From assembly GCA_002840935.1 (NCBI GenBank), contig PHDH01000002.1:1-52615 (forward strand): DNA of 52,615 nt, written 5' to 3'. The DNA comes from Bacteroidetes bacterium HGW-Bacteroidetes-21 (lineage in GTDB: Bacteria > Bacteroidota > Bacteroidia > Bacteroidales > GWA2-32-17). Each line of letters begins with the position of its first letter. Position 1 is the stretch's first letter. Below are positions 3,069 to 21,342 of this stretch, piece after piece. The notes under the pieces are model-generated. The model made no database searches, was not told the origin of the DNA, and saw nothing but the letters and a program-made list of their open reading frames with translations. A program made the position numbers and the translations under genes.

Positions 3069-5201
3069 ATGATGAAACCCGATTATAAAAAAGTAAACAT
3101 ATCCGAAATTCCCGCCTCCGGAAACAAACCTATGGCAGGTGAATGGAATACCCCCGAATTGATCAATGTGAAGAAAACCTTCACCGCTGAGGATCTGGCT
3201 AATATGGAGCATTTGAGTTATGCTGCCGGTTTGCCTCCTTTCCTTCGTGGTCCTTACAGTACTATGTATGTGCAGAAACCCTGGACCATTCGTCAGTATG
3301 CCGGTTTTTCGACAGCCGAAGAATCTAATGCTTTCTACCGTCGTAATATTGCCGCCGGACAGCAAGGTCTTTCTGTGGCTTTCGATTTAGCTACACACAG
3401 AGGTTATGACTCCGATCACGAAAGAGTAGTGGGAGACGTTGGAAAAGCCGGAGTTGCTGTCGATTCTATCCTCGACATGAAGATACTCTTCGATCAGATT
3501 CCCCTCAACAAAATTTCTGTGTCCATGACCATGAATGGCGCTGTATTGCCCGTTCTTGCTTTCTACATCGTTGCTGCTTTGGAACAGGGAGCCAAACTGG
3601 AAGAACTGGCCGGAACCATACAGAACGACATTCTGAAAGAGTTCATGGTTCGTAATACTTACATTTATCCGCCCGATGCTTCGATGAGGATTATTGCTGA
3701 TATTTTCCAGTTCACCTCACAGAAAATGCCCAAATTCAACAGCATTAGTATTTCAGGATACCACATGCAGGAAGCCGGCGCAACTGCAGATATCGAAATG
3801 GCCTACACTTTGGCCGATGGACTCGAATATCTTCGTACGGGAATCAAATCAGGACTGACCATTGATGAGTTCGCTCCCCGCCTGTCTTTCTTCTGGGCCA
3901 TTGGGATGAACCACTTCATGGAAATCGCCAAAATGCGCGCTGCCCGTATGCTTTGGGCTAAGATGGTGAAACAGTTTAATCCTAAAAACCCAAAATCTTT
4001 GGCGCTTAGAACTCATTCGCAGACTTCAGGATGGAGCCTCACCGAACAGGATCCTTATAATAACATCGCCAGAACTTGTATCGAAGCTATGGCTGCCGCA
4101 CTGGGTCATACTCAGTCGCTGCATACCAATGCGCTGGATGAAGCCATTGCTCTACCAACAGACTTCTCTGCACGTATCGCCCGTAACACACAGATTTATC
4201 TGCAGGAAGAAACCAACATTTGCAAGGTGGTCGACCCATGGGCAGGTTCCTATTATGTGGAATATCTGACCAACGAACTGGCGCATAAAGCATGGGAACT
4301 GATTAAAGAAGTAGAAGATTTGGGCGGTATGGCCAAAGCCATCGAGACAGGTATTCCCAAAATGCGTATCGAAGAAGCTGCTGCCCGCAAACAGGCACGC
4401 ATCGACTCCGGCAGAGATGCCATCGTGGGCGTGAATAAATATCGCCTCGAAAAAGAAGATCCCATCGATATTCTTGAAGTTGATAATACTGCCGTTCGTG
4501 AAGCTCAGTTGAGAAGATTGAAAGATCTGAAAGCCAATCGCAACAATGCTGAGGTACAGGCTGCTCTCGACGCCATTACCAAAGCTTGCGAAACCGGCGA
4601 AGGCAATCTGCTCGAGCTTTCGGTAGATGCTGCTGCCAAACGCGCCAGTTTGGGCGAAATTTCTTACGCAATTGAAAAAGTTTATGGGAGGTACAAAGCT
4701 GTGATACGTACAATTTCAGGGGTTTATGCTTCAGAAACCCACGGTAGCGACGAATTCAATAAAGCCAAAGAACTGGCCGACAAATTTGCCGCAAAAGAAG
4801 GACGTCGTCCTCGTATTATGATTGCTAAACTGGGCCAGGACGGTCACGATCGTGGAGCCAAAGTGGTAGCAACTGGTTATGCTGATATAGGCTTTGACGT
4901 GGATATGGGACCGCTGTTCCAGACACCCGCCGAAGCTGCCAAACAGGCGGTAGAAAATGACGTGCATGTACTGGGTATTTCCAGTCTCGCAGCAGGACAC
5001 AAAACCCTTGTGCCTCAGGTAATGCAGGAGCTTGCCAGTTTAGGAAGAGAAGATATTATGGTAATCGTGGGTGGTGTAATTCCCGCTCAGGACTATGACT
5101 TCCTCTACAAAGCCGGTGCTGCAGGTATTTTCGGACCCGGAACTTCAGTAGCTTTGGCTGCATCTAAAATTCTGGAAATACTGCTGGAAGGACAGGAATA
5201 A
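3069..5201 (+). CDS. mutB: Methylmalonyl-CoA mutase large (catalytic, B12-binding) subunit
   Basis: [31 protein letters not shown] and B12-binding GQDGHDRG motifs (scpA/mutB family). Confidence 0.97.
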
Positions 5202-5254
5202 AGTTTACTGTTAAGACGAGTTGTTACTTCTGATTTTTGAAATTAGGATATGAC

Positions 5255-5298
5255 AAAAAAATGAGTAAAACCGCCAATGTGGTTTTACTCATTTTTAT
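5255..5298. terminator. Bidirectional intrinsic terminator
   Basis: AAAAAAATGAGTAAAACCGC-CAAT-GTGGTTTTACTCATTTTTTT hairpin between convergent genes, with A/T tails on both sides. Confidence 0.85.
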
Positions 5299-5303
5299 TT
5301 ATT

Positions 5304-6302
5304 CTATTTTACAGGAAAATAGATTTCCGTAATCCATTTTGAAGTGTCCGGCTCAGTCATAGGATCGGTTACGTAAATTTCCCAAGGCCCACCATTCTGT
5401 TCGTATCCATTTTCTTTCATGTAGTAGTCGAGGTCGTTATATGCTTTCTCTGTTCCTTCGTAGGGCCCGGTGTAGATAATATAAACTACTTTACCGGCAT
5501 AGCTTTGTTTGAATTGTATGCGGCCTTCTGGTTTGATTTCTTTACTGACGGGTATAGCTGCTTCGAAATCCCAACTGGAAGGATCCCATGCATAGGAAAT
5601 AGCCATTGGAGCACCGGCGCATTCTACTTTCTGTTTTTTTAGTAAGCTCATTATTTCTCCAAAGTTTTTTCCCAGAACTTCGCTGGTTTCGTTCATAGAA
5701 ATAGTGTCTCTGATGGCTGCAATATTTAAAGCATCTACTGATTTTTCAAATATTGAATAAGAATATTCATAAGACTTTTCTTCAGCGACAGTCTTGATGT
5801 TTGCCAGACCTTTTTCGAAATCACTGCCCAGCATTTTATCAAAGCTTATAAATAGGGTCATCAACCGCCCCATGGGGTATGATAAACTTCCTTCATCGTA
5901 CCAAGTCAGTTCTGTTTTGTCATCATTAATTTTAACAATAAAACCTCCTTCGGAAGTGCTTTCCATTGGATCTAGGAATGTAAGCTGATATTTGATAAGG
6001 GTGTCATTAATTCCCGTTATTCTTAGTTTTCCTGAACCTACAATTTCACCTTCCCAAGACATCTCGGCATTCACTCCAATGGTATCGTTGTATGTGTATA
6101 TGGCTGCTGAATCGGCTGCTTTCCATGGTGACCATTTGTCCCACATTTTTAAGTCAGTTATCAGAGGTGCTATTTTTTCAAAGCTGGCATTTATTTCTGT
6201 TTTACGCTCTACTTTATATGAGGAGGGGAGAAAGGCTGCTATAATCAGTGCTATTGCAATAATTGAGATCAGTATAATCATTATCCATTTTAAGCTTTTC
6301 AT
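5304..6302 (-). CDS. Membrane-anchored SRPBCC (polyketide cyclase-like) + GyrI-like small-molecule-binding protein
   Basis: N-terminal TM helix; LPSSYKVER...WDKWSPW and G.DFEKGLANIK (SRPBCC); C-terminal YTGPYE...GPWEIYVTDP..W.TEIYFPV (GyrI-like). Own TATATTTG box at 6326-6333 (minus). Confidence 0.85.
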   Translation of the reverse strand: MKSLKWIMIILISIIAIALIIAAFLPSSYKVERKTEINASFEKIAPLITDLKMWDKWSPWKAADSAAIYTYNDTIGVNAEMSWEGEIVGSGKLRITGINDTLIKYQLTFLDPMESTSEGGFIVKINDDKTELTWYDEGSLSYPMGRLMTLFISFDKMLGSDFEKGLANIKTVAEEKSYEYSYSIFEKSVDALNIAAIRDTISMNETSEVLGKNFGEIMSLLKKQKVECAGAPMAISYAWDPSSWDFEAAIPVSKEIKPEGRIQFKQSYAGKVVYIIYTGPYEGTEKAYNDLDYYMKENGYEQNGGPWEIYVTDPMTEPDTSKWITEIYFPVK

Positions 6303-6337
6303 ATTTTTTTAAGTTTTAGATAAAGCAAATATAGAAA

Positions 6338-6952
6338 TTATTCTGCTTTCAAAAGTTCAATAATTTCGGATAATATCATGGCAGTTGCTCCCCATATGAT
6401 GTGACTATTAAAACGATAGCAGGGGATATTAAAAAGTTGATTTGCGTAATTAAGTTCGAAGTCTGACTTTGTCTCTGGGTCTAAAAGACGGGCAAAGGGA
6501 ATTTCAATAATCTCGTCAACTTCAATATCGTTTTTCGAAAAGTGGGGTCTGGATTCAAGCACACCCACAAAGGGGTGGACCATAAAATTACTTACAGGAA
6601 TAAACAAGGGAGATAGTCCTCCGGCAATTTCTCCAGATTTTATTTCTACTCCAATTTCTTCACGACATTCCCGAATGGCAGCTGCTTTTAAACTCGGATC
6701 TTCTTTTTCCATTTTTCCTCCGGGAAAGGCAATTTGTCCGCTGTGTGGACTTCTGTCTATTGTCCGTTTTATAAAGCATAAATTAAGCACATTGTCTATG
6801 GGGTAAAAAAGTGCCAACACACTACTGTTTACAGGAGGAGTTGAATGGGAAATTTTTAGAAACTCATAACGGGTTTCCGGCCACATATGCTTATGCGCCT
6901 TTTCGCCAGGAAGCGGCTGGCTTAAAGCATGTTGTATGCTTTCGAGTAGCAA
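6338..6952 (-). CDS. NUDIX hydrolase, CoA pyrophosphatase family
   Basis: HSGQIAFPGG, Nudix box AAIRECREEIG and IWGATA. Confidence 0.9.
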   Translation of the reverse strand: MLLESIQHALSQPLPGEKAHKHMWPETRYEFLKISHSTPPVNSSVLALFYPIDNVLNLCFIKRTIDRSPHSGQIAFPGGKMEKEDPSLKAAAIRECREEIGVEIKSGEIAGGLSPLFIPVSNFMVHPFVGVLESRPHFSKNDIEVDEIIEIPFARLLDPETKSDFELNYANQLFNIPCYRFNSHIIWGATAMILSEIIELLKAE

Positions 6953-6954
6953 GT

Positions 6955-8340
6955 TTATTTATGATACTTTCTGATAAAATCTTCGACTTCTTTCACGCCA
7001 CCCTGATAGATCAGATATCCATTGTACGGTTCGCGGGGAGTAATTTCGTCGTTGATAGGTGTGAGCATAATTTCTTTTACCTTTTCGGTATCGCTGGTCT
7101 GGCCCAAAGCCCAACCCAGTTTAATGTAGGCTGTTTCGGGCAACATGTTTTCAGCCGGAACAATACCTTTAGCCATTAAGTCGCGGCCGGTATCATAAAC
7201 GAACATATGTACATATCCCCAAAGGGTCTGAACTGTCATATAAATTACGACACCTTTTTGCACGGCTCTTTCGATGGCAGGATAAATGGGTTTGTTTACG
7301 TGACCCAGTCCGGTACCGATCATGATAATACCTTTATAACCATTGTCCACCATGCTGTCGATCATGTCGGGCTGCATGTTGGTGTAGTAATATAACATAC
7401 CCACTTTTTCTTCGAAATAAGGCATGATGGTTACATTTCTGTCTTTGCGACGTGGTTTGTAATCTAGTTTCTGTGGAACAACGCCTTTGCGGGTTACAGT
7501 GGCAACGGGAATATCTCCGATGGTACGAAAAGTCGAGCGGTAGGAAGAGTGCATTTTTCTGACACGGGTACCTTTGTGTAGAAAACCATATTCGTCTGAA
7601 GTGGGTCCGAACATACATACCATAACTTCGGCAATATCGCCATGACCAGCAGCTGTGGCAGCATGCATGAGGTTTAAGGCTGCGTCAGAGCTGGGGCGAT
7701 CGGATGAACGCTGTGAACCAACAAGTATGATGGGAACGGGTGAGTTCTGTACCATGAAAGTCAAGGCTGCTGCGGTATAATGCAGGGTGTCGGTACCGTG
7801 ACCGATAATAATACCATCAATGCCATTCTCAATTTCTTTACCAATGGCAATGGCCAGTTTTTTATATTGTTCTGGCCCCATATTTTCGCTGAAAACTGCA
7901 AAAAGTTTGTCGGTGGTCAGATTACATATATCGGCTAGTTCGGGTACTGCACCGTATAATTCGCCAGGAGTAAAAGCGGGAATTACAGCTCCGGTGCGGT
8001 AGTCGAGACGGGATGCAATGGTTCCTCCGGTTCCCAGTAGTTTTACTTTTGGCAACCCAGGTGTAGTAGGGAATTCCTTCTCGGGAATCTTATAATTTGC
8101 TTTTTTGTAACCGGTTTCTTTCATTCCGGTGATAGTTGTAACGTCAATTCCGATATTGTAACCGGTGATGATTTTTACCACAATGTGTTGGTCGTCATCA
8201 TTCTCTGACCGGGGTAAAACGGTGCCTTTGAATTCGCCACGGGTTGTGTTGATTTCGGCCTGACCCCATACTCTTACGTTATATTTTTTAAGCAATTCGA
8301 GTGATTGCCCTTTATAACCCTGAAAAAAATCTTCGCTCAT
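6955..8340 (-). CDS. gatD: Glutamyl-tRNA(Gln) amidotransferase subunit D
   Basis: GatD-specific N-terminal domain (GTVLPR...HIVVK..GYNIGI) plus asparaginase-like core TGGTIASRLDYRTGAV, HGTDT, GSQRSSDRPSSDA and RVRKMHSS; adjacent to gatE. Confidence 0.93.
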   Translation of the reverse strand: MSEDFFQGYKGQSLELLKKYNVRVWGQAEINTTRGEFKGTVLPRSENDDDQHIVVKIITGYNIGIDVTTITGMKETGYKKANYKIPEKEFPTTPGLPKVKLLGTGGTIASRLDYRTGAVIPAFTPGELYGAVPELADICNLTTDKLFAVFSENMGPEQYKKLAIAIGKEIENGIDGIIIGHGTDTLHYTAAALTFMVQNSPVPIILVGSQRSSDRPSSDAALNLMHAATAAGHGDIAEVMVCMFGPTSDEYGFLHKGTRVRKMHSSYRSTFRTIGDIPVATVTRKGVVPQKLDYKPRRKDRNVTIMPYFEEKVGMLYYYTNMQPDMIDSMVDNGYKGIIMIGTGLGHVNKPIYPAIERAVQKGVVIYMTVQTLWGYVHMFVYDTGRDLMAKGIVPAENMLPETAYIKLGWALGQTSDTEKVKEIMLTPINDEITPREPYNGYLIYQGGVKEVEDFIRKYHK

Positions 8341-8351
8341 TATTTCAAGTT

Positions 8352-10319
8352 TTAAGCTGATAAAATAATCTTTTTTAATTCACTGAGAGGAATGTTTCCT
8401 TCAGCCTGTGTGCGCAGTTGTCCCATGACCCAATTGGCTTCATTTTCTTTGTCCTTTATTCGGCCAATTTCTTTGTACTTGTCTTTCAAAAAGCCTATGG
8501 GTGCAGTAATCTCTTCTTTGCTGCGTTTTTTATAACGGAGTATTGTCAGGATGCTGTCGATATCCATGTTGGGGTGCATATATAATTCGGGAAGCATTTG
8601 CCATGCCAGTTCGTAATGTATGCCTTGTTGTTTCAGGAAAGCCAGTACATTATAAACTTTTTCAAAAGTAAATTCGGGAGATGCTGGATAATGTCCTTGT
8701 ATCCATTTAAGACGTTGAGATAAAAGGCGGGCAGTGAATGCAGGTGGAACACTCAGCTCTTTTTCGGCTTTTTCAATCATGGGAACCAGATTGTTGCGGA
8801 AAAGATAATGATGCAGATATTCGGAAACGCCCCATCCAAGTAGCTGTTTGTAACGGTCAATGACTTCCACAGGAAGGCTGTTACGTAGGTTTTCTATGTA
8901 ATCGTTTTCCAGAGGAATGGGTGCTGAGTCGGTGTCGGGATACATGCGGTCGGCTCCGGGAAGTACTCGTTCGAAAATGGTTGTGCCATCCACGAAAGAT
9001 TTTCTGGTTTCAAAGGGTATGCCCGTGAAGGCCATCAGACAGCGTTCCTGAATTACTTCAAGAGCCGTTTTTCTGTCGTTTTCGGGTCCCCAGAATATCA
9101 TCAGTGCGTCGTCGTCGCCGGCAGAAATCTGTGTTGCCAGTTTTTCCCATACTTCATTTTTAATGACGGGTTCGGGCATTTCACTATGAATCATGTTGGG
9201 CAGTTCGAGGCAAGCAATGACTTTCAGTCTTTCTTCAATTTCGTTGGCAAAACATTTTCCGGGCTGTGTGAAATGCGATAGAATGCCTTTGAATCCGGGC
9301 AATTTAACCAGAACAATCATGTGGTCCTGTCCTTTTCCTTTTTCAAGGGGCTCGTAGTCAGTGGTAAATTGCCCCTGATTAATATCCAAAGTTTCAATTT
9401 TCCATCCGGAAAAATCGGGGAAACGTTTCAGTAATTCGTCGCGGAGATGCAATAACGACCACTGGCGATAACATTCGTTATGTGTAAGTTCGGGAATCCA
9501 ACTGTTATGTGCTACTCCTTTGATTTCGATACGGGTGCCGCCTTTGCAGCTTACATTTACGTCTTCGCGACCAGCGCCAATACCGGTTCTTACTTTACCC
9601 GTACTGCGGTTCAGAAAACGTATATAGTTAGCGGCTTCTTTTACTTCGTCGGGATTGACCATGTCGGGATAAGTCACTGTTTCAATCAATGGCATGCCCA
9701 GTCGATCTGTCTTGTAAATACGTACATGGCCGATATCTGAAATTTCGCGACATGAATCTTCTTCAATACTCAGCTGAATGAGTCTTACTTTTTTATTTTT
9801 TAAAGGAATTTCGCCTTCAACACCTAGTATAGCGGTTCTTTGAAATCCTGTGGGAATACTGCCATCGAGATATTGTTTGCGGGTAATATGTACTTCACCT
9901 ACTACGTTCATTTTATTCAGAAGTGTGATTTCAAGAGCAATACCCAGCGCTTCACGATCGATTTTAAAGGGTGGGGTATCATCCACTTCATAAGTGCAAG
10001 CCGTTTCGTTTTTAATGCGGTAAACGATTTCCTTGCGGGTCTTAAATTCCATGAGGGCTGTGCCATCGTATTCGCCCAGTTCACTGAGGGTAGGACGCAT
10101 ATGTCGTACGATTTCGGCGTCATAATCGTCGCTGTGATTAAATTTTCCGGCAGGACAATGGCAAAAAAGCTTTTTCTTGGTCAGTAATTGCTGATGTACT
10201 TCAAGTCCAGACATAAAACCAATGCGATCGTAGTCGGCTTGAGTTGCTTTTTTACGCGGAACATATCCTATGATTTCACGCGTCTTGTCATAATTTTCTT
10301 TAGCATTAATCAATTTCAT
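8352..10319 (-). CDS. gatE: Glutamyl-tRNA(Gln) amidotransferase subunit E
   Basis: GLEVHQQL..KKLFCHCP, RPTLSELGEYD, DGSIPTGFQRT, EEDSCR, DRLGMPLIE, DVNVS..GG.RIEIKGV and PGADRMYPDTD motifs, plus a GAD-type insertion (LPGFKGIL...MIHSE) that GatB lacks. Confidence 0.94.
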   Translation of the reverse strand: MKLINAKENYDKTREIIGYVPRKKATQADYDRIGFMSGLEVHQQLLTKKKLFCHCPAGKFNHSDDYDAEIVRHMRPTLSELGEYDGTALMEFKTRKEIVYRIKNETACTYEVDDTPPFKIDREALGIALEITLLNKMNVVGEVHITRKQYLDGSIPTGFQRTAILGVEGEIPLKNKKVRLIQLSIEEDSCREISDIGHVRIYKTDRLGMPLIETVTYPDMVNPDEVKEAANYIRFLNRSTGKVRTGIGAGREDVNVSCKGGTRIEIKGVAHNSWIPELTHNECYRQWSLLHLRDELLKRFPDFSGWKIETLDINQGQFTTDYEPLEKGKGQDHMIVLVKLPGFKGILSHFTQPGKCFANEIEERLKVIACLELPNMIHSEMPEPVIKNEVWEKLATQISAGDDDALMIFWGPENDRKTALEVIQERCLMAFTGIPFETRKSFVDGTTIFERVLPGADRMYPDTDSAPIPLENDYIENLRNSLPVEVIDRYKQLLGWGVSEYLHHYLFRNNLVPMIEKAEKELSVPPAFTARLLSQRLKWIQGHYPASPEFTFEKVYNVLAFLKQQGIHYELAWQMLPELYMHPNMDIDSILTILRYKKRSKEEITAPIGFLKDKYKEIGRIKDKENEANWVMGQLRTQAEGNIPLSELKKIILSA

Positions 10320-10459
10320 GATAATTTCATTTCAGCTGTAAAGTGAGTTACAAAAATGGTGAAAATTGCGCAAATCTTTTCAAATTATCCTGTTTTTTTT
10401 AATAGCTTTGTAACGTTACGATTTTCAGCGCGTATAAGTAATAATAAAATGAAAAATTT

Positions 10460-11743
10460 ATGAAAAGTTTAATTTTTACTTTCTTTTTTTCTATGACTCT
10501 GACGGGTATTGTATTCTCGCAGGTAAGAACCCCAAGACCACAACTTGAAAGTTCGCCCAATATTAACAAAGGCGGATCTGTAGTTACTCTATTGTCAGAT
10601 CCAGAATCGTTTGTACAGGGTGAAATGTTTGGTCCTTGTGTCAATATTTCCAATGTACAGGTCACTTTTCCTGCTGGAAAATTATCAAACTCTATTGGCA
10701 TGTGGTCAGACTCTTTAAATCATATCGGAATTGATGAAGGGATGATAATCTCTACCGGATATGCTCTGTCAGCGATTGGTACTGTATCAGATTTTGCTTC
10801 AAATGATTTAATTGGGGCAGGTGATACTAATCTTACTGCATTATGTGGGGTTACAACATATGATGCCGTTAGTATTGAATTTGATTTTGTGCCTTTGGCT
10901 GATTCTATAGTTCCCTTTGAATTTGTTTTTGGCTCAGAGGAATATCCCGAATATGTGAATACTGGTTATAATGATGTGTTTGCCTTTTATGTAACGGGAA
11001 CAGGGTATACTGGGGCAGAAAACGTAGCGATTATTCCTGGAACAAATATCCCAATAGCCATTGATAATATTAATTCTGGGTCATATTCTCAGTACTTTAT
11101 AGATAACCAAGCAATAAATGGTAGTTTCTGGGTTTACGATGGCTACACGACTGTGTTCTCATTAAGTATACCTGTTGTTGCACTTGAATCGTACCATTTT
11201 AAAGCCGTTATTGCTGATGCCGGTGATGGTATTTATGATTCGGGTGTCGTTCTCAGAACGGGCAGTTTTGCCGGTAATATTATTGCTCCCGCACCTTCCT
11301 TCACCTATGAAGTGAATGGTAATGCTGTGACTTTTACAAATACAACGACCAACGGAATGAATTATTCCTGGGATTTTGGCGATGGAACTTTTTCTACAGA
11401 AGAAAATCCCGTTCATACTTATGCCGGAGCTGGTCCTTATACTCTCAAACTGACAGCTGCTAATCATTGCTATTCCGAAGAAATTGAAGTAGTGATGGAC
11501 CTGGCCACACAAGCAGGAACATTTCCTGTTCAGGAAGTGATGCTACATTCTATGAATCAACAAGGTTTGTATAATCTAAGTGGCTTGACCGGAAAAGAAA
11601 GCATTAGGCTCTGTGATATTACAGGAAAAACTATACAGTTTCAATTGAACGGTACAATGGCGGTAATTGATTTGAGTAATTTCCAGTCGGGAGTGTATAT
11701 CCTGAATGTGGATGGTAAGAGTTTTAAACTAATCAGACCCTAG
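10460..11743 (+). CDS. Choice-of-anchor L domain protein with PKD domain and T9SS C-terminal sorting domain
   Basis: Signal peptide; DAVSIEFDF, FVFGSEEYPEYV..GYNDVFAF and IADAGDGIYDSGV; PKD YSWDFGDG...NPVHTY; CTD-like end (SGVYIL...FKLI). Confidence 0.85.
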   Translation: MKSLIFTFFFSMTLTGIVFSQVRTPRPQLESSPNINKGGSVVTLLSDPESFVQGEMFGPCVNISNVQVTFPAGKLSNSIGMWSDSLNHIGIDEGMIISTGYALSAIGTVSDFASNDLIGAGDTNLTALCGVTTYDAVSIEFDFVPLADSIVPFEFVFGSEEYPEYVNTGYNDVFAFYVTGTGYTGAENVAIIPGTNIPIAIDNINSGSYSQYFIDNQAINGSFWVYDGYTTVFSLSIPVVALESYHFKAVIADAGDGIYDSGVVLRTGSFAGNIIAPAPSFTYEVNGNAVTFTNTTTNGMNYSWDFGDGTFSTEENPVHTYAGAGPYTLKLTAANHCYSEEIEVVMDLATQAGTFPVQEVMLHSMNQQGLYNLSGLTGKESIRLCDITGKTIQFQLNGTMAVIDLSNFQSGVYILNVDGKSFKLIRP

Positions 11744-11752
11744 TCGTTGTAC

Positions 11753-12178
11753 ATGCTAAAAGATGGTCGCGATTTATTGCGTTTTTTGGTCTTTGTGACT
11801 TCCCGAAGTTCGGGTCCAGGCGGACAGAATGTGAACAAAGTCAATACCAGGGTGGAACTTCGTTTTAATGTTCATGCCTGTGAATTATTGACAGATGCAG
11901 AAAAAATGCTTATTTCAGAAAAGCTGAAAAGGAAGATTAACTCCTACGGAGAATTTATTCTGGTCCGACAAACCGAACGGTCACAATTGAAAAATAAGGA
12001 AAAGTGCCTTCTTGCTTTTTACGAATTGATAAACCAAGCTCTAATCCCACCTAAAAAGCGTAAAAAAACAAAATTGTCGGTCGCTGTTAAAGTGCGTCGT
12101 TCCGAAGAAAAAAAACGGGCTGCCATGAAAAAAAAGGACAGAGGCTGGAGTAAAAATTCAGGACTGGAAGGCGAATAG
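11753..12178 (+). CDS. arfB: Alternative ribosome rescue factor B (peptidyl-tRNA hydrolase)
   Basis: SRSSGPGGQNVNKVNTRVELRF, RSQLKNKE and a basic C-terminal tail. The start could alternatively be TTG 11747. Confidence 0.92.
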   Translation: MLKDGRDLLRFLVFVTSRSSGPGGQNVNKVNTRVELRFNVHACELLTDAEKMLISEKLKRKINSYGEFILVRQTERSQLKNKEKCLLAFYELINQALIPPKKRKKTKLSVAVKVRRSEEKKRAAMKKKDRGWSKNSGLEGE

Positions 12179-12212: not shown

Positions 12213-15200
12213 CTATTTTGCCCAAATGCCAAAATCATTCTCAATATTTTCTTGTCGCATGGTAGGTTTTTGTTTGCCTCCGGTGAGTTTTTGCACGTTT
12301 TCGAGGATGTATTTTTGCAGTTCAGACACGGTAATCTGATGGTCTTTGTTCAGGTCGGCAAGTCCGGACAATAGCCCTTCGCGAAGCGAATAGGTAAATA
12401 CGCCATTTTTCCATTGTTCTCCCTCGAAAGCAAACTCGCCTCCCCCTGCCGAGGAGATCACCACAGCGCCCGTTCCTTTGCGAAGATCAGCGAAAAGCTC
12501 CTTCATAAGCTCAAACGAATTATTATAGCTGAGCGTTGTGTTAGACTGATAACCTCTGGGTTTCACGCCTCTGAATATGACATCTTTTTCGGTCGTTGTT
12601 TGTGCTACTATTTGCGTTTCTGCATCTTTATCCACTTCTCCGGAATGGCAGGCGTCGATGAGTAAAAGCTTTTCGCGTGCCGGGATGGAATCGAGTAGTC
12701 TGTCCAGTTCTTCGTATTTCAGACCGCCTTCTGAAGGCTTATTGAAATTTATGTTGTAAGTAGCCAGGTAATAATCAAGGTTCTCATCCAATAATCCATG
12801 CCCTGCATAAAAGACGAGTACTTTGTCGTCAACTTTTGTGTTGCTAAGTAATTCCTTTACTTTTTTAATATTTCCTATGGTTACATCTTTGTTAAGAATT
12901 ACGCGGGTAGTGATTTTCCCGTAGTTGTTCTTTTGGTTCTCAAAAAGCGAGATAACATCACTGGCATCCTTAGCGGCAAAAGAGAGATTCCACTCAGGAT
13001 CTGCGTATTCTGAAGCACCAATAGCAATGACATACAAATCCGGTTTTGCTTGTCCGGCACTGGTGCAGATGATTTCAACCGTTTCTCTCAGGCTTTCAAC
13101 CCCTTTTTCGTTCATGCATGAAACCCTGACTTTGTTTGTTCCTTGCGAAAGGGTCAGGGTTATTTCGCGGGAAAACTCTTTCAGGTTTTTATCGCGCAAC
13201 GAAAAACCTTGAGATCCGAAAACAGCAACGTCGTTTACCCAGACATTCATTCGGTCGAGATAATACTTGCTGTCTTTTGCCACGAGGGTGAATGTAAGTG
13301 ATGAATTTTCAGTAAGAACAGGAATTTTATCTGCTTCTGTAATCACTATTTCAGGAAGATGAAAATCGTTGGCAAACATTTCTTCTGTAAAACCACTTTT
13401 TTGTAGTCGTTTTGCATATGCCATATGTAGCGCTTTAACCATCTCTGGCGTGGCGCATCCAAGTCGTTCCATGACAATGTCGGGACGGTTGTATTGAAGA
13501 TCGAATTGTTCAAAGGGATAAAATTTTAGCCCGAATGTAAACCCAATTTCTTTTTTAGCATTTTTTGTTGAATAATAGAAATAATCGGGGGTCTTAATGA
13601 TAAAATCACTGTTGTTCATTGTAAATAAGGTGGCAATCTCTTTCCCGCTATTGATATCCCAAATTTTCATGGACCCATCTAGCGACGATGTGACTAACTG
13701 TTTTCCGCCAGTTATAAATGCTGCTCCAGTGAGAGAATCGCTGTGCCCCGTGTACTTACTTGTAATTTTTTGTTGCTCGATATCAAATTTGACCATGGAG
13801 TGGGTCTGATCCTGAAAAAGAAATGATTTTCCATCGGAAGCATAGAGTAAAGGTCCTTTTCCTGAAGTAATTACTTTAACAGAATCCCTTTTGTAGTCAA
13901 ATATAAGAATTTTATCTTTTTCATCAGCTATCAGCATAGTATCGTTAACAGGACTGAAGCAGAAAGATTTTATTTCGTATTGAAAATCAAATGTTTTAAT
14001 TGGTTTTGTCTGTTGTAAATCCCATATTTTTAATGAATTATATGAGTCGTAAAGAACCGTGTTTTGAGATAAAGTTTTTACTGCCAGATACATGCCCAGG
14101 ACAGGTACCAGAAGAGAAATCGCCATGTTTTTACTAAATTTTTTTGAAAGTGCAGGTGCTCCTGTCTTATAATCTCGTCCACTACAGGCAAAAATGGAAG
14201 AATTATAATTAAAACCGATGCAATCTATAGATTTGTAATGTGCGCCAATAACTTTTTCTTTCTTTAATTCTGCAGTGTTAATTAGATGGATGGGGAAAAT
14301 ACGGGGTGCGAAAAATCGATAAAGAATGCCTTTGTTGAATCCTTTTCCCCCTGAAGCATAATATTTTCGATTGGGTGAAACGGCTGATACATCTTGTGAT
14401 TCGAAATTTCCCCACAGGAATTTTCGGGCATAATCAAAGGAAGTTATAGTATTAAGAAAAACCGTGTACAAAGGTGCATTTGCGATAGCATTATACCACC
14501 TGGGATTATGATTTCCTTTAATCTTTGCTGTGGAGCCCGTTTTCATATTGGAAAAAGCAATACGATTATCACTGCCTGAGGAAACCAACATCGTATCGGA
14601 GACGAAATGCATTCCGGTGACTTTACCCTGATGCCCGGAAAAGCCCATAATAGAAATTTTGTTATCAAGGAAAATGGAACTAATAAAGTGATCGCTTCCT
14701 CCCAGGGCAATATAGCTGCCTTCGGGATTGACCGCCATTTGAACAATAGGATGGATGCCACTTTCGAGCTTGCGAACGATTTGATTATTGCTAATGTCAA
14801 TGACAACAACATCCCCCGACTTGTTTCCTGCAATTAGAATGTTTTTATGCAGTGGATGAAAAACCACTGAAGTATAAATATTGAGAGGATCTGCAAATAT
14901 TTGCAGAAAGGCTCCTGAGCTTTTCCATTTGTAAATATTTCCATCTTCATTTACAGCTGTTAGAATGGAATCGTTAGCATTTAAAGAGATACTAATGAAA
15001 TTCTTTTTTCTAAAATCGCCTGAACGAGTATAGGTGACTTTTTCTTTTATTGGATCGAAGCAAGATATTCTAGATGGAACACAGGATATAAATAGTTTTG
15101 CTTTTTCTATTTTATGGTAGATAATATTTGCTTTGCATGGGATAGTCATTTTCTCGGAGCCATCCCACGAGAGCATTTTTGTGTCAAAATAGGAAAAGAA

Positions 15201-15878
15201 ATTATAGCCCGATAATAAGGAAATGGCCCTTGCAGCAATAATTTCTGTCTCGTTGGATCCAAAAACAACCGAAACGCCAGCGGGTATTGGCTTGTATATT
15301 TGGGAAAACATGGACATCAATTTCCCTGTTTTTTTATAACTCTTTTTTATTCCGCTTTTTTTAAGGAGAGTCTCAAAATATTTAATACTATCAGCTGATG
15401 ACCACAGGGTAATATCCTTGTCGAAAACAATTTTTTCAGAAATTTTCCAACATCTAATAAAAGAAAAAATCCCCGTGGCTATTAGATGTGCATCGTTTTC
15501 ACTGATGTCAAAAGATAAAACGGGCTGTTTCATTTGAATGGATTCTTTGATACTCCCTTCCTCGATATTCCAGAACAGAATCTGACCATCATTGCCGGCA
15601 GAAATAAGTTGATTGTTATGGTGTAGAAACTGAATTGCATTAATCTTCTGGCTATGTCCTTTTAAAACTTTTAACTGCTTTCCCAACCTGAAATCCCAAA
15701 TGATAATAATGTTATCGGCACCAGCTGTAGCCAACAGGGTTCCATCTTGATTAAAAGCCATTGTAGTCACGGGAGCCGAGTGGCCCGTTTGCAACGTGAG
15801 TTCTGGGTTTTGTCCCCAAAGAATGGGAGTAGCCAGGACAAACAACAAAAGCAATAACTGTTTTTTTATCATTGCCAT
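12213..15878 (-). CDS. Exported WD40-repeat protein with C-terminal caspase-like (peptidase C14) domain
   Basis: Signal peptide; WD40 repeats (GHSAPVTTMAF...IIIWD); catalytic dyad FYAGHG and IDACHSG; W.NGVFTY and GKQKP. Confidence 0.9.
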   Translation of the reverse strand: MAMIKKQLLLLLFVLATPILWGQNPELTLQTGHSAPVTTMAFNQDGTLLATAGADNIIIIWDFRLGKQLKVLKGHSQKINAIQFLHHNNQLISAGNDGQILFWNIEEGSIKESIQMKQPVLSFDISENDAHLIATGIFSFIRCWKISEKIVFDKDITLWSSADSIKYFETLLKKSGIKKSYKKTGKLMSMFSQIYKPIPAGVSVVFGSNETEIIAARAISLLSGYNFFSYFDTKMLSWDGSEKMTIPCKANIIYHKIEKAKLFISCVPSRISCFDPIKEKVTYTRSGDFRKKNFISISLNANDSILTAVNEDGNIYKWKSSGAFLQIFADPLNIYTSVVFHPLHKNILIAGNKSGDVVVIDISNNQIVRKLESGIHPIVQMAVNPEGSYIALGGSDHFISSIFLDNKISIMGFSGHQGKVTGMHFVSDTMLVSSGSDNRIAFSNMKTGSTAKIKGNHNPRWYNAIANAPLYTVFLNTITSFDYARKFLWGNFESQDVSAVSPNRKYYASGGKGFNKGILYRFFAPRIFPIHLINTAELKKEKVIGAHYKSIDCIGFNYNSSIFACSGRDYKTGAPALSKKFSKNMAISLLVPVLGMYLAVKTLSQNTVLYDSYNSLKIWDLQQTKPIKTFDFQYEIKSFCFSPVNDTMLIADEKDKILIFDYKRDSVKVITSGKGPLLYASDGKSFLFQDQTHSMVKFDIEQQKITSKYTGHSDSLTGAAFITGGKQLVTSSLDGSMKIWDINSGKEIATLFTMNNSDFIIKTPDYFYYSTKNAKKEIGFTFGLKFYPFEQFDLQYNRPDIVMERLGCATPEMVKALHMAYAKRLQKSGFTEEMFANDFHLPEIVITEADKIPVLTENSSLTFTLVAKDSKYYLDRMNVWVNDVAVFGSQGFSLRDKNLKEFSREITLTLSQGTNKVRVSCMNEKGVESLRETVEIICTSAGQAKPDLYVIAIGASEYADPEWNLSFAAKDASDVISLFENQKNNYGKITTRVILNKDVTIGNIKKVKELLSNTKVDDKVLVFYAGHGLLDENLDYYLATYNINFNKPSEGGLKYEELDRLLDSIPAREKLLLIDACHSGEVDKDAETQIVAQTTTEKDVIFRGVKPRGYQSNTTLSYNNSFELMKELFADLRKGTGAVVISSAGGGEFAFEGEQWKNGVFTYSLREGLLSGLADLNKDHQITVSELQKYILENVQKLTGGKQKPTMRQENIENDFGIWAK

Positions 15879-15881
15879 GGC

Positions 15882-16973
15882 TTATTTTATAAAAAAGTTA
15901 AAAGGTACTTCCACGGTTTCTTGCTCAAAATCAGTATTCAGCATAATTCTTAAGCCGGAAGTATAAGAGCAGCCATTATAAAATTCGGGACTTGGACTTT
16001 CAAGTGTCATTACGACTTCAAAGCAATCAAACCCACCTTGCATCATTTCTGGTATTTTTCCTGAAATCTGAAGGAAGTCCATGGGTAATTCCCCGTCATC
16101 GTAATTATAATCAAAGCTGTAGGGTGGTTTGTAATAGATGCCTTGGGTACCGGCATTAAGTCTCTCCAGAAAACCATGAATATTATTATTGCTCCATGTA
16201 TAAGGTTCTGTAAATTCTAAAAAATGACAAATGACTTTACTTTGAAGCGCTTTATTCATCAGGCTATATAGATTGATTTCCTGCCAGTAATTTTTTCGTC
16301 TCGTCATAAAGATAAACAAATGCTGGTTTTCGTAAGTCGATTTTGCGTTGAGGTAATCCAGCATAGAGTCTATGGCTGTTAGCAGCCGAAGTGTGTCGAA
16401 TGCTTCGGTATTACCTGTATGAAAAAATTGGGAAATAATCTGGTCTGTTTCGCCAGGATTAGAGATAAATCCGTTACTCAAAAGTTCAATAGGCATTTGT
16501 TTATCGCCTACTTTTGCCAGAAGTATCTCATTGGAAGGTAGTGAACCATGAATAATTTTTCGAACGGTTGGTTCCATTCTATCAAAAATGCCATTCATGT
16601 TGATGGTGACGTCTAGTCCATTACTCATTAATATAGCGGCCGAATAATTCCCTTTCTCCGGAGTCGTAATACGCTTTAAACTATCAATCGCACCTGAGTA
16701 GTCGCCTGACAGTGAGATTCTCCCGTTTATATCGAAACGAACCAGACCGTCGGCATTGGATTTGTCCAGTACAAAGAAGCGAACTTTAACAACTGACTTT
16801 AAATTTGTATAACTCAGTACTTCGTTGGATAAAATCCCTACTGAATAATAGTTTTTAATGATTTTCTCTTCCTCTTTTTTGCAAGATGGCAGGATTATCA
16901 GTACTGAAAAAAGACAGACAGCTAAAGCTTTGAAACTGAAAGAAAATACTATGTGGTTGTTTCTTTTTTTCAT
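15882..16973 (-). CDS. Lipoprotein, possible degenerate VWA-like domain
   Basis: Lipobox ILPS-CKKEEE; alpha/beta pattern (YSAAILMS..., LLTAIDSMLDYL, HLFIFMT) reminiscent of VWA but without a DxSxS motif. Confidence 0.6.
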   Translation of the reverse strand: MKKRNNHIVFSFSFKALAVCLFSVLIILPSCKKEEEKIIKNYYSVGILSNEVLSYTNLKSVVKVRFFVLDKSNADGLVRFDINGRISLSGDYSGAIDSLKRITTPEKGNYSAAILMSNGLDVTINMNGIFDRMEPTVRKIIHGSLPSNEILLAKVGDKQMPIELLSNGFISNPGETDQIISQFFHTGNTEAFDTLRLLTAIDSMLDYLNAKSTYENQHLFIFMTRRKNYWQEINLYSLMNKALQSKVICHFLEFTEPYTWSNNNIHGFLERLNAGTQGIYYKPPYSFDYNYDDGELPMDFLQISGKIPEMMQGGFDCFEVVMTLESPSPEFYNGCSYTSGLRIMLNTDFEQETVEVPFNFFIK

Positions 16974-17707
16974 GAGCTGGGGTTTGACTTTTTAATCCAA
17001 GGGTTGAATAATGTAAAACTATAGCAAACTCTTATCATTATAAGGTCCTTATAATTTGCATTGTACAAAAAAGTTTCTTTGTTAAGTTCTGTAATATTTT
17101 TTTCAAACCGGATATCAAGTGCATTACTATAGTACGAAAAACCTATTCCTCCTATGATGTCCATGTAATAATTGTTGAATTTCTTCATTAGCTCATCTTT
17201 TCTCGTCGCATCGGCATAATAATAATAATTCTGATTTGAGTTTTGATCCGTTACGAGAGTTATTGAAGAGAAAAATACGGTTCTGAATCGACCAATACGG
17301 TTATTTATTCCTCCAAAGAATCTGATTTTGACAAGGCTGCCAGGATTAATTGTAAGCCCACAAAAAAGAGGAACTTCCAGCGCCGAATAAGTAAAGTATT
17401 TATCTCGGGAGGTCTTCCAGTCAGGAATGTTTTTCCTGAATTTATTTTCAAAAAAATTAACTTCGCCCTGAAAATATATGTGGGGCATTCTATATCTTAC
17501 AAAAACCCCTGTAGACAATCCTGTGAGATAAGTGTGATACTTATTATCACCGGCAGTAAGTGAGGTATAATCTTTAAAAATGATGTATTCTTTATCAAAA
17601 GTAAGTTTGCTGAATAATAAAGGGGAGTATACAATACCGGTTTCCATTTTCTGGGCAAAAAGGCTTGCATAAATGCACATGAATCCTATGATGAGCAACT
17701 TTCTCAT
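16970..17707 (-). CDS. Putative outer-membrane beta-barrel protein
   Basis: Signal peptide; amphipathic strands (GVFVRY, YFQGEVNF, LEVPLFCG, IRFFGG, LDIRFE); ATGA overlaps with both neighbours. Confidence 0.65.
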   Translation of the reverse strand: MRKLLIIGFMCIYASLFAQKMETGIVYSPLLFSKLTFDKEYIIFKDYTSLTAGDNKYHTYLTGLSTGVFVRYRMPHIYFQGEVNFFENKFRKNIPDWKTSRDKYFTYSALEVPLFCGLTINPGSLVKIRFFGGINNRIGRFRTVFFSSITLVTDQNSNQNYYYYADATRKDELMKKFNNYYMDIIGGIGFSYYSNALDIRFEKNITELNKETFLYNANYKDLIMIRVCYSFTLFNPWIKKSNPSS

Positions 17708-18360
17708 TCGTAGCTTATCCTTTTTATCTGATTCGGTGGAGTGCTAACAAGTATAGGGAAAGCTACACCGATTTTTATTTCATAAAAACTGGAGATCTGA
17801 AAACTATCGTATTCCATTTTGTCTGCACGGTTGCATCTGGATAATGTACAGGTTATGGGTGTATTTCCCAGTTTGAAAATCGTATTAATGCCAGTTCTTA
17901 GAGTAAAGACGCTTGCTGAAATATCATAGGCAGAGCCATATATTCTAATATAAGGATCTTTATTATATGTGGCATTGTGACTGAATATTGTGATTCCAAA
18001 TTCAGGAGCAATTTTCAACTTCTCTGATTTGCTTCGGATTACATCGTAAGAAATTCCAAAGTCGAAGGTATTGCCTCCGCCCCGCGCATTTACTTTAACG
18101 GACTTATAATCAAATTCATCAAAACTATAGTTTCTCACGGTTCCATAATAATTTTTTGGTACATAATAATTCATTCCAAAGTATATACCGAATCTATTTA
18201 AAAGGAAAGTATATTGCCAGGAAGCGCCATAAAAATAGAAGGGTTTATTATCAAAGGCAGGAAGGTAAATCTGACTACTGCCTATAGACAAGCGATATGA
18301 CTGGGAAAAAGAAGTCAAAGACAAGAATGCAAAGGCGAAAAACAGTAGTAGTTTTCTCAT
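17704..18360 (-). CDS. Putative outer-membrane beta-barrel protein
   Basis: Start at ATG 18360 (MRKLLLFF, ATGA overlap with upstream stop); signal peptide; aromatic alternating strands ending YEIKIGVAF. Confidence 0.6.
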   Translation of the reverse strand: MRKLLLFFAFAFLSLTSFSQSYRLSIGSSQIYLPAFDNKPFYFYGASWQYTFLLNRFGIYFGMNYYVPKNYYGTVRNYSFDEFDYKSVKVNARGGGNTFDFGISYDVIRSKSEKLKIAPEFGITIFSHNATYNKDPYIRIYGSAYDISASVFTLRTGINTIFKLGNTPITCTLSRCNRADKMEYDSFQISSFYEIKIGVAFPILVSTPPNQIKRISYE

Positions 18361-18824
18361 AAACCATCTGGATTTAATCTGGTCGTCCAATGGCTTCTGT
18401 CGAAATAATCATAGACGTAAAAATAGTACCCGGTCCATGAGTTGAGAATTGCTTCATCGTCTTTTACGCACAAATTTTTAATAGTTAACGTATAATATAC
18501 ATCTTCTTCTCTCTGCTCGAATTCCCCCATATATTCGTGGATATGCAAGTCGGTATAATCGAATTCATCGTATAATAATTCTGATGTCCAGTCTTTGATT
18601 TGATATTTGACTACATGGAATAAATCGTATTTTATTTCGACATATTCGTTTGCTTGATAGAATTTTCCATCAACAGGTATGCTACCGGATGCGTCAAAGA
18701 TTTGTAGGTTTTTAATCGTGGTATCTGCTGGGGGGATGACACGCAAAAAACATAAGCCGTTTTCTTTTTTGCAGGAGAAGAAAACCGTCAGTAAAACTAT
18801 TATTACTAACCCTTTTTGCCGCAT
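18357..18824 (-). CDS. Hypothetical lipoprotein
   Basis: Lipobox VFFS-CKKE; first gene of an overlapping five-gene run. Confidence 0.7.
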   Translation of the reverse strand: MRQKGLVIIVLLTVFFSCKKENGLCFLRVIPPADTTIKNLQIFDASGSIPVDGKFYQANEYVEIKYDLFHVVKYQIKDWTSELLYDEFDYTDLHIHEYMGEFEQREEDVYYTLTIKNLCVKDDEAILNSWTGYYFYVYDYFDRSHWTTRLNPDGL

Positions 18825-21160: not shown

Positions 21161-21174
21161 GGTGTTTTTTGGGG

Positions 21175-21182
21175 CAAATGTA
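21175..21182 (-). promoter_or_regulatory. Bacteroidota -7 promoter element for glnA
   Basis: TACATTTG on the minus strand, 14 nt upstream of ATG 21160. Confidence 0.6.
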
Positions 21183-21342
21183 AATATAAAATGAAAATAA
21201 TAATTAAATTGTGTGAAAAATATGGGTAAATATTCAAAACAAAACAAAATATGAAATTTTATATTTCATTTTTGGTGACTTGAAGAAAAATAAAAAATTT
21301 ATTTGGTATTATTCTTGTAAATCTGTTCACAAATCGATAGAT

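Follow-up and report, generated by a model that had tools for sequence, protein, structure and literature searches.

GatDE, as described from the archaea M. thermautotrophicus (2D6F) and P. abyssi (1ZQ1), is a tRNA-dependent amidotransferase of two subunits that are encoded by a gene pair. GatD combines an N-terminal domain with an asparaginase fold, and GatE is made up of a catalytic cradle, an insertion resembling aspartyl-tRNA synthetase (AspRS) and a helical C-terminus. The subject of this work is a gatE-gatD pair on contig PHDH01000002.1 (52,615 nucleotides) of Bacteroidetes bacterium HGW-Bacteroidetes-21. The stretch is the whole contig, and these 52.6 kb are referred to as the window. 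It belongs to a metagenome-assembled genome (MAG) of 3.9 Mb in 326 contigs, which is 88% complete with 1.4% contamination.

GatE has been termed an "archaeal signature protein" (PMC2330236), and reviews of 2008, 2021 and 2022 still describe GatDE as confined to archaea. The kinase site of M. thermautotrophicus GatE holds Mg by means of His15, Glu157 and Glu184, whilst asparaginases work with a Thr nucleophile and a Thr-Lys-Asp triad (PMC2330236). It was also reported that archaeal GatDE reads the A1-U72 pair of tRNA(Gln), and that it tells its substrate from Asp-tRNA(Asn) by the first base pair together with D-loop positions 19/20 (PMC2330236). Amidation of Asp-tRNA(Asn) (Asp-AdT activity) has never been reported for any GatDE, according to these reviews.

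Asparagine synthesis on tRNA has been described for the amidotransferase GatCAB. The enzyme of Bdellovibrio bacteriovorus makes asparagine in this way, and those of Thermus thermophilus and Deinococcus radiodurans do likewise with the help of a second AspRS (PMC4206432). Bdellovibrio possesses asparaginyl-tRNA synthetase (AsnRS), glutaminyl-tRNA synthetase (GlnRS) and the amidotransferase but neither AsnA nor AsnB, and its single bacterial AspRS also charges tRNA(Asn) (PMC4206432). No bacterium is known to encode both routes to Gln-tRNA(Gln), according to the same paper (PMC4206432).

Identity and integrity of the gatE-gatD pair

The pair occupies the following positions of the window:

8352-10319, minus strand: gatE, 655 aa, predicted tRNA-dependent kinase/amidotransferase subunit, with profile, PDB and fold matches
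8341-8351, minus strand: spacer of 11 nt from the gatE stop to the gatD start
6955-8340, minus strand: gatD, 461 aa, predicted asparaginase-type glutaminase subunit with the GatD N-terminal domain, with profile and PDB matches

From sequence comparison, the best explanation of this locus is that it encodes an intact GatDE-type tRNA-dependent amidotransferase, which is predicted to be expressed as a pair. GatE scored 470.6 bits against NF003107 (cut-off 456) and 407.3 bits against TIGR00134 (cut-off 319.55), and its best sequence matches in the PDB were the archaeal GatE chains 2d6f_C (E 1.9e-84) and 1zq1_C. Residues H42, E186 and E213 align with the Mg ligands His15, Glu157 and Glu184 of the M. 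thermautotrophicus enzyme, and these ligands are invariant across an alignment of 45 GatE sequences (alignment A2). GatE was modelled with AlphaFold2 from an alignment of 45 sequences, and the model reached a mean predicted local distance difference test score (pLDDT) of 91 and a predicted template-modelling score (pTM) of 0.88. When this model was submitted to Foldseek, 1zq1_C and 2d6f_D took the top ranks with a template-modelling score (TM) of 0.82 on the target, where the solved chains cover only 485-522 residues, and GatB chains followed at 0.56-0.72.

The Pfam model GatB_N has 277 positions and stretches over residues 37-476 of GatE; hence, an insertion must be present. Taken together with the modelled fold, this shows that GatE carries an AspRS-like (GAD) insertion that has no counterpart in GatB, even though the Pfam match to GAD is below threshold (E 0.074, residues 334-414). 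The tail of the protein gave no Pfam match to GatB_Yqey even at E ≤ 10. It aligns weakly with the tail of 1zq1_C up to residue 641 and is modelled as helical with pLDDT 84-95.

GatE shares with GatB a paralogous catalytic cradle, which accounts for the GatB_N match and the Foldseek scores of the GatB chains. It differs from GatB in its score of just 105.5 bits on the GatB model TIGR00133 (cut-off 314.8), in an insertion of about 160 residues that GatB lacks, and in having GatD as its partner instead of GatA and GatC. An identity as GatB was rejected on the grounds of this score, the nearer fold of GatE and a search of the genome in which no GatA was found.

GatD scored 494.4 bits against NF003217 (cut-off 310) and 493.8 bits against TIGR02153 (cut-off 324). 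Its Pfam domains are GatD_N (PF18195, 41.3 against a threshold of 25.7), Asparaginase (PF00710) and Asparaginase_C (PF17763), and its best PDB matches were 1zq1_A (E 3.1e-116) and 2d6f_A. Three motifs, GTGGTIAS at residues 103-110, HGTDT at 181-185 and VRKMH at 260-264, are identical or near-identical in the GatD proteins of P. abyssi and M. thermautotrophicus. The role of each motif residue was assigned as in the asparaginase literature. A free-standing type I L-asparaginase was considered and rejected, since the score against TIGR00519 (376.4, cut-off 260.5) is lower than those against the GatD equivalogs, and the protein has the N-terminal domain as well as a gatE gene next to its own.

The locus has in common with the archaeal enzymes the two subunits and their gene pair, the domain layout of GatD and of GatE (cradle, AspRS-like insertion and helical C-terminus), the Mg ligands, the asparaginase motifs, the fold at TM 0.82 and scores above the equivalog cut-offs. 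It differs in its bacterial host, which has GlnRS, a discriminating-type glutamyl-tRNA synthetase (GluRS) and tRNA(Gln) whose first base pair is U1-A72 and not A1-U72; in an identity of 30-35%; and in having its YqeY tail and GAD insertion below the Pfam thresholds. The bacterial proteins also form a separate clade, and their distribution is complementary to that of asparagine synthetases. Six GatE positions are fixed differently in this clade and in archaeal GatE, one being C190 beside the Mg-binding EED motif. In alignment A2, Cys190 is fixed in the bacterial clade and is Ala in archaeal GatE, and Cys53, Cys55 and Cys108 are invariant in bacterial and archaeal members.

An earlier sequence-only reading of the window had proposed full-length gatE and gatD genes 11 nt apart with intact catalytic motifs and the GatD N-terminal domain. 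The open reading frame (ORF) coordinates agree with it, as do the Pfam match to GatD_N, the three GatD motifs and the aligned Mg ligands of GatE. The GAD insertion that it claimed for GatE was borne out as regards presence, by the GatB_N span and the fold, and failed as a Pfam label. A grouping of the proteins with GatB or with ordinary asparaginases, which it had named as refuting, was not seen: the GatE equivalog cut-offs were passed and that of GatB was failed, and GatD has the GatD_N domain and higher scores on its own equivalogs.

Distribution and phylogeny of bacterial GatDE

A gatE gene scoring over the cut-off was found in 21 of 41 close relatives, and 15 of the 17 genomes of the same family gave a match. 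The survey was extended to 151 genomes of the order, at least 90% complete and drawn evenly from about 140 families, and gatE exceeded the cut-off in 66 of them (about 44%), the gene being counted as present in 66-67. Among relatives within the order, GatD is 77-84% and GatE 59-68% identical. In eight of the ten larger loci obtained from relatives, gatE is directly followed by gatD. The two exceptions are G038, where gatD lies outside the fetched locus, and G040, where one 410-aa ORF separates the genes (L017, G040:C28, 7279-8511).

The nearest proteins in databases are 64-78% identical and already labelled GatE; they come from MAGs assigned to Bacteroidota, Bacteroidales, Lentimicrobium, Marinilabiliales and Bacteroidia. 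When 1.84 billion representatives were scanned without a profile, 598 clusters came up at E ≤ 1e-30, and one representative (P0124), 51% identical, is linked to Fermentibacterota, Aegiribacteria and Krumholzibacteriota. Scanning one genome per prokaryotic species returned at least 600 matching stretches, the best 80 of which were taken as loci for counting. Of these, 73 have bacterial titles and seven archaeal ones (one Heimdallarchaeota, one Njordarchaeota and five Thermoplasmatota). The bacterial titles include Planctomycetota/Phycisphaerae, Ignavibacteriota, Acidobacteriota/Aminicenantes, Myxococcota, Gemmatimonadota and Cloacimonadota, and further Calditrichota, Caldisericota, Chlorobiota, Rhodothermota, Marinimicrobia and others. 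The pair is not peculiar to this Bacteroidota chromosome, in which the sequence-only reading had noted it, and the archaeal restriction of GatE is not upheld by these counts.

A GatE tree of 110 rows was computed with IQ-TREE (LG+G4, quick search), with branch support from the Shimodaira-Hasegawa-like approximate likelihood ratio test (SH-aLRT). All 71 bacterial rows fall into a single group (SH-aLRT 94), which is nested with two small Thermoplasmatota groups in a clade of 76 rows (100), and the Heimdallarchaeota GatE is the sister of this clade (97). The other side of the tree holds 32 representatives lacking names and the Njordarchaeota copy; the named relatives of P0171, a protein from that side, are all archaeal (Asgard groups, Thermoprotei, Nezhaarchaeales and Pyrolobus). 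The protein of the window joins its nearest representative on a long stem (0.73), close to the copies from Fermentibacterota, Krumholzibacteriota and Gemmatimonadota.

In the GatD tree, the approximately unbiased (AU) test rejected Bacteria plus the query as one clade (p 0.0002), with five rows held outside, two of which lack a domain label. All that is taken from this tree is that the Thermoplasmatota copies L028 and L031 lie among bacterial ones. The GatE proteins of five Thermoplasmatota MAGs (L028, L031, L042, L043 and L096), and GatD in the case of L028 and L031, go with the bacterial clade. This grouping could mean that the genes returned to archaea by transfer, that their position is ancestral or that the MAGs were wrongly binned, and these copies may be secondary. 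The trees are best explained by a large bacterial branch that has been mostly vertically kept and that probably descends from, or shares its origin with, archaeal GatDE of the Asgard/Thermoplasmatota kind. The picture suggested is that the genes were exchanged once, long ago, between Archaea and Bacteria, in either direction, and later spread across bacterial phyla.

The bacterial branch has also diverged in its domain labels. Pfam GatB_Yqey is assigned to four of 120 Bacteroidota-type and to none of 120 Fermentibacterota-type relatives, as against all 120 archaeal relatives of P0171; for GAD, the corresponding counts are 0, 1 and 120 of 120. In the helical and tail regions, GatE is only 14-18% identical to other members (14-17% in the tail), even inside the bacterial clade.

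As far as was searched, the bacterial clade is known to annotation pipelines and apparently not to the literature. No paper describing a bacterial GatDE was found in full-text literature, a 2008 study of GatCAB/GatDE evolution being outside the scope of that search. Three suppositions of the sequence-only reading agree with these results: an old transfer or an unrecognised bacterial lineage, which fits a clade of many phyla beside Asgard and Thermoplasmatota copies; homologues that had already been annotated automatically; and the lack of any functional characterisation in the literature searched.

Complementarity with asparagine synthetases

AsnRS is encoded in the genome under study (638 bits), in 38 of the 41 relatives and in all five GatE-positive genomes of other phyla that were examined; hence, tRNA(Asn) can be charged without GatDE, as can tRNA(Gln) (see below). 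AsnA was not found in the 88%-complete assembly, and no protein of the genome exceeds the cut-off (499) of the AsnB equivalog NF006949. Three paralogues of the TIGR01536 class reach 282-312 bits on NF006949, where the true AsnB proteins of two relatives reach 933-944 bits, and they resemble XrtA-type amidotransferases. In three relatives (G020, G028 and G030), gatE is present and there is no match whatever to TIGR01536 or AsnA.

Within the order, GatDE is strongly complementary to asparagine synthetases. Among the 67 GatE-positive genomes of the set of 151, AsnA or AsnB is present in 14 and neither in 53; among the 84 GatE-negative genomes, one or the other is present in 61 and neither in 23. 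The odds ratio is 0.10 with a Fisher p of 2e-10, a value that overstates the association because related genomes are not independent. Type III glutamine synthetase (GSIII), which was used as a control and represents type III only, showed no comparable pattern (48 of 67 GatE-positive against 70 of 84 GatE-negative genomes, p 0.11).

The association was also examined on a tree of 144 AspRS genes, on which the state of gatE switches at least 24 times and that of AsnA/AsnB 21 times. After the paired test described below, a binary trait was simulated on this tree under a simple null with two states, a midpoint root and three chosen rates. Whichever of these rates was used, a phi as strong as the observed -0.546 came up in no more than 0.03% of 3000 runs (one-sided). 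Outside the phylum, the five GatE-positive genomes examined, from Phycisphaerales, Ignavibacteriales, Aminicenantes, Caldisericia and one further bacterium, are all without AsnA and canonical AsnB.

Proposed role in asparagine synthesis

The general chemistry can be predicted by homology. GatE would bind a mischarged aminoacyl-tRNA and phosphorylate its side-chain carboxylate at the expense of ATP, and GatD would free ammonia from glutamine (or asparagine), which an intersubunit tunnel would deliver to the activated intermediate. The most likely job of GatDE in this organism, at about even chances on comparison with the described systems, is tRNA-dependent asparagine biosynthesis. A lone bacterial-type AspRS, if relaxed in its specificity, would also aspartylate tRNA(Asn), GatE would phosphorylate the resulting Asp-tRNA(Asn), and ammonia derived from GatD would amidate the intermediate to Asn-tRNA(Asn), in place of the missing AsnA and AsnB. 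The amidation is ascribed to GatDE as the one amidotransferase of this kind in a genome that lacks GatCAB. Identity, integrity, distribution and genomic context are observed; the substrate and the relaxed AspRS are inferred. The genome has one bacterial-type AspRS, truncated by a contig end, and a search for an archaeal-type one gave no match. The sequence-only reading had left room for a repurposed enzyme, and the complementarity with AsnA/AsnB gives this option a concrete form.

In its gene set, the genome resembles Bdellovibrio, Thermus and Deinococcus, where AsnRS and GlnRS are present, an amidotransferase is kept and AsnA/AsnB are absent (here apart from the three TIGR01536-class paralogues); it also shares with Bdellovibrio the single bacterial-type AspRS. 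It differs from the GatCAB systems in that the amidotransferase is GatDE, whose glutaminase is an asparaginase homologue and not an amidase. A change of substrate is made plausible by the reliance of the archaeal enzyme on tRNA features for discrimination, together with the drift of the tRNA-reading parts in the bacterial clade. The broader proposal is that bacterial GatDE is an Asp-tRNA(Asn) or dual Asp/Glu amidotransferase, the first GatDE of such specificity, and that close to half of the order's families, as well as members of many other phyla (Ignavibacteriota and Acidobacteriota among them), have no asparagine route besides it. This we hold somewhat more tentatively, at a little short of even chances.

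Several observations weigh against a role in asparagine synthesis. The three paralogues of the genome exceed the TIGR01536 cut-off and could make asparagine. AsnA or AsnB is kept by 14 of the 67 GatE-positive genomes, and 23 of the 84 GatE-negative genomes manage without both. The AspRS tree is a single-gene stand-in for the species tree, and a paired test on it was not significant (p about 0.25) with nine independent pairs on supported branches; in these pairs, the state of the asparagine synthetases differed in the opposite sense in about 2.7, in the same sense in 0.1 and not at all in 6.2. Sister genomes in three families (f3, f10 and f22) differ in gatE with AsnA/AsnB unchanged, and habitat, that is host-associated versus environmental lineages, could drive both traits. 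Three of the GatE-positive genomes of other phyla also have GatCAB, which could do either job. A specificity signature in AspRS was sought over 144 sequences and rejected, as no column cleanly tracks gatE (the best reached 0.34 bits). No tRNA(Asn) was among the 30 tRNAs found by aragorn in the 88%-complete assembly. Finally, archaeal GatDE is described as Glu-specific (PMC2330236).

Alternative explanations

A second, indirect route to Gln-tRNA(Gln) was considered, in which GatDE would amidate Glu-tRNA(Gln) beside GlnRS, either as a backup under glutamine scarcity or to repair tRNA(Gln) mischarged by GluRS. The equivalog models that GatD and GatE passed were both trained on Glu-tRNA(Gln) amidotransferases (Glu-AdT), the active sites are conserved and the genome has its own tRNA(Gln) genes. 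Against this, GlnRS is encoded in the genome itself (734.5 bits), in 40 of the 41 relatives and in 20 of the 21 GatE-positive relatives. The genome has one bacterial GluRS and each of the relatives one GluRS, and all 38 GluRS proteins of relatives that were compared have Arg at the position of T. thermophilus Arg358, GatE-positive and GatE-negative alike. This Arg we take to be a marker of discriminating GluRS that is replaced in non-discriminating enzymes. With GlnRS and a discriminating-type GluRS in the genome and a glutamine synthetase in the window, GatDE is therefore not needed to charge tRNA(Gln) here, and it is unlikely that its textbook role is essential in this genome. In the genome, the GatB model matches gatE itself only and GatA was not found, and none of the 41 relatives has GatB.

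The two tRNA(Gln) genes of the genome both have U1-A72 and short D-loops, as opposed to the A1-U72 read by archaeal GatDE. GatE follows the absence of AsnA/AsnB and not that of GSIII, and the co-occurrence of both routes is not known from any bacterium (PMC4206432). Among the five GatE-positive genomes of other phyla, those from Ignavibacteriales and Aminicenantes have GlnRS and no GatB, as the present one does; those from Phycisphaerales, Caldisericia and the further bacterium have GatB and no GlnRS, so the indirect pathway is in use there through GatCAB. In these three, an archaeal-style division, with GatDE serving Gln and GatCAB serving Asn, is possible. GatDE is clearly the sole Gln route in none of the 26 GatE-positive genomes checked for GlnRS and GatB, and the only one to lack both is G022, which is 82% complete. 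On balance, a second Gln-tRNA(Gln) route is considered unlikely, and is the chief rival of the proposed asparagine role. The sequence-only reading had put the supply of Gln-tRNA(Gln) forward as one option and had named glnS, gatCAB, the type of GluRS and the 1-72 pair of tRNA(Gln) as checks on it; their outcome makes this the weaker option.

A different substrate or role is improbable. The enzyme might keep its kinase/amidotransferase chemistry and use it on another acyl-tRNA or on a molecule resembling tRNA, such as in making a non-ribosomal product, or it might be chiefly a regulated asparaginase/glutaminase. The low identity of the helical and tail domains within the bacterial clade, the loss of most Pfam YqeY and GAD labels, the six positions fixed differently from archaeal GatE (C190 included) and the dispensability of the gene across the order would fit such a role. 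On the other hand, both subunits are kept together under strong constraint, and the complementarity with AsnA/AsnB is the simpler account. When all ORFs of the best 80 loci were clustered over the many phyla, GatE was found in 72 and GatD (within 4 kb) in 53, and the next cluster in only seven; there is thus no third gene that regularly goes with gatDE and could hint at a different pathway. That third-largest cluster (median 440 aa) includes an ORF of about 1100 aa directly after gatE in a Planctomycetota MAG (L033:3717-7022).

An artefact, whether from wrong binning of archaeal DNA, from a chimeric assembly or from two decaying pseudogenes, would be suggested by the source, an incomplete MAG of 326 contigs with some contamination, and by the GC content of gatD and gatE (0.42-0.46, against the usual 0.35-0.40 of the window), but it can practically be dismissed, since conserved neighbours (the genes for the secreted cargo protein, GSIII and methylmalonyl-CoA mutase) have the same raised GC, Bacteroidota-type genes flank the pair on both sides, the pair recurs across the order with family-level synteny, the frames are open with intact catalytic residues, and contigs of a public sequencing run cross both gene junctions without differences. 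In that run (X1, labelled groundwater metagenome), separately assembled contigs covered 5200-11800 at an even depth of about 6, one spanning 8120-11745 and another 6605-8130; this support is not independent because the run is probably the source sample. The sequence-only reading had raised chimerism at the gene borders, and none was found.

Gene neighbourhood and other tRNA observations

The features around the pair are the following:

6338-6952, minus strand: NUDIX hydrolase ORF, coenzyme A (CoA) pyrophosphatase-like, with a TTG start; downstream neighbour of gatD
10320-10459: intergenic region of 140 nt between gatE and the divergent cargo gene, presumed promoter region
10460-11743, divergent from gatE: cargo gene of the type IX secretion system (T9SS), with choice-of-anchor L and Por_Secre_tail domains
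18971-21247, minus strand: type III glutamine synthetase with GSIII_N, Gln-synt_C and Gln-synt_C-ter domains, 9 kb from gatDE

The NUDIX ORF begins 2 nt from the gatD stop. It matched Pfam NUDIX and scored 95.8 bits on NF007980, under the cut-off of 134. A NUDIX gene follows gatD on the same strand in five genomes of the same family (G003, G004, G007, G009 and G011) and is convergent in G035; none adjoins gatDE in G020, G028, G038 or G040, and NUDIX does not feature in the recurrent gene clusters of the best 80 loci of other phyla. A functional link between NUDIX and gatDE was rejected, as the arrangement amounts to family-level synteny plus one other genome. The closeness of the two genes noted in the sequence-only reading is real, and a wider link does not follow from it.

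The other flanking genes are typical of Bacteroidota and encode ArfB, two methylmalonyl-CoA mutase subunits and a WD40-caspase protein. An exact copy of the Bacteroidota -7 element, which we take to be TAnnTTTG, was not found by eye in 10320-10459. Of the 16 ORFs in the first 22 kb (1-22 kb), 14 were scanned, six with NCBIfam and Pfam at E ≤ 0.001 and ten with Pfam at E ≤ 1e-5. These 14 gave no match to a transposase or integrase family, and five of them gave no match whatever. The T9SS cargo neighbour and the lack of mobility genes among the ORFs scanned agree with what had been read from the sequence. Further along, 12213-18824 on the minus strand holds the gene of a protein of 1221 aa that combines WD40 repeats with a caspase domain (Peptidase_C14), then four ORFs (15882-18824) without a Pfam match at E ≤ 1e-5; together they may form a conflict or signalling cassette.

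Some further tRNA genes were observed. In one bacterial MAG, a tRNA-Glu(ctc) lies about 200 nt upstream of gatE (L030:3726-3802), and no other tRNA for Asn, Gln, Asp or Glu was seen in any fetched locus. In the genome under study, aragorn reported a regular-looking tRNA-SeC(tca) at C62:7655-7749 and a 93-nt "tRNA-Stop(tta)" at G000:C267:81-173, the latter with 31% GC, acceptor-stem mismatches and a weak T arm, which is probably a false call.

Implications

Reviews draw on GatDE as an argument in scenarios that explain the entry of Gln and Asn into the genetic code and the lack of GlnRS in archaea. A large, constrained bacterial clade alters the archaea-only distribution of the enzyme. Its presence in genomes that already have GlnRS or GatCAB provides a testable case of a change of amidotransferase substrate after crossing between domains. 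If the proposed role in asparagine synthesis is true, the asparagine auxotrophy predicted for many bacteria, environmental Bacteroidota among them, would not exist, and metabolic reconstructions that score asparagine synthesis by AsnA, AsnB or GatCAB alone would be wrong for such bacteria. GatDE would then cease to be a signature of archaea, and counts of GatCAB would greatly underestimate how common tRNA-dependent asparagine synthesis is in bacteria.

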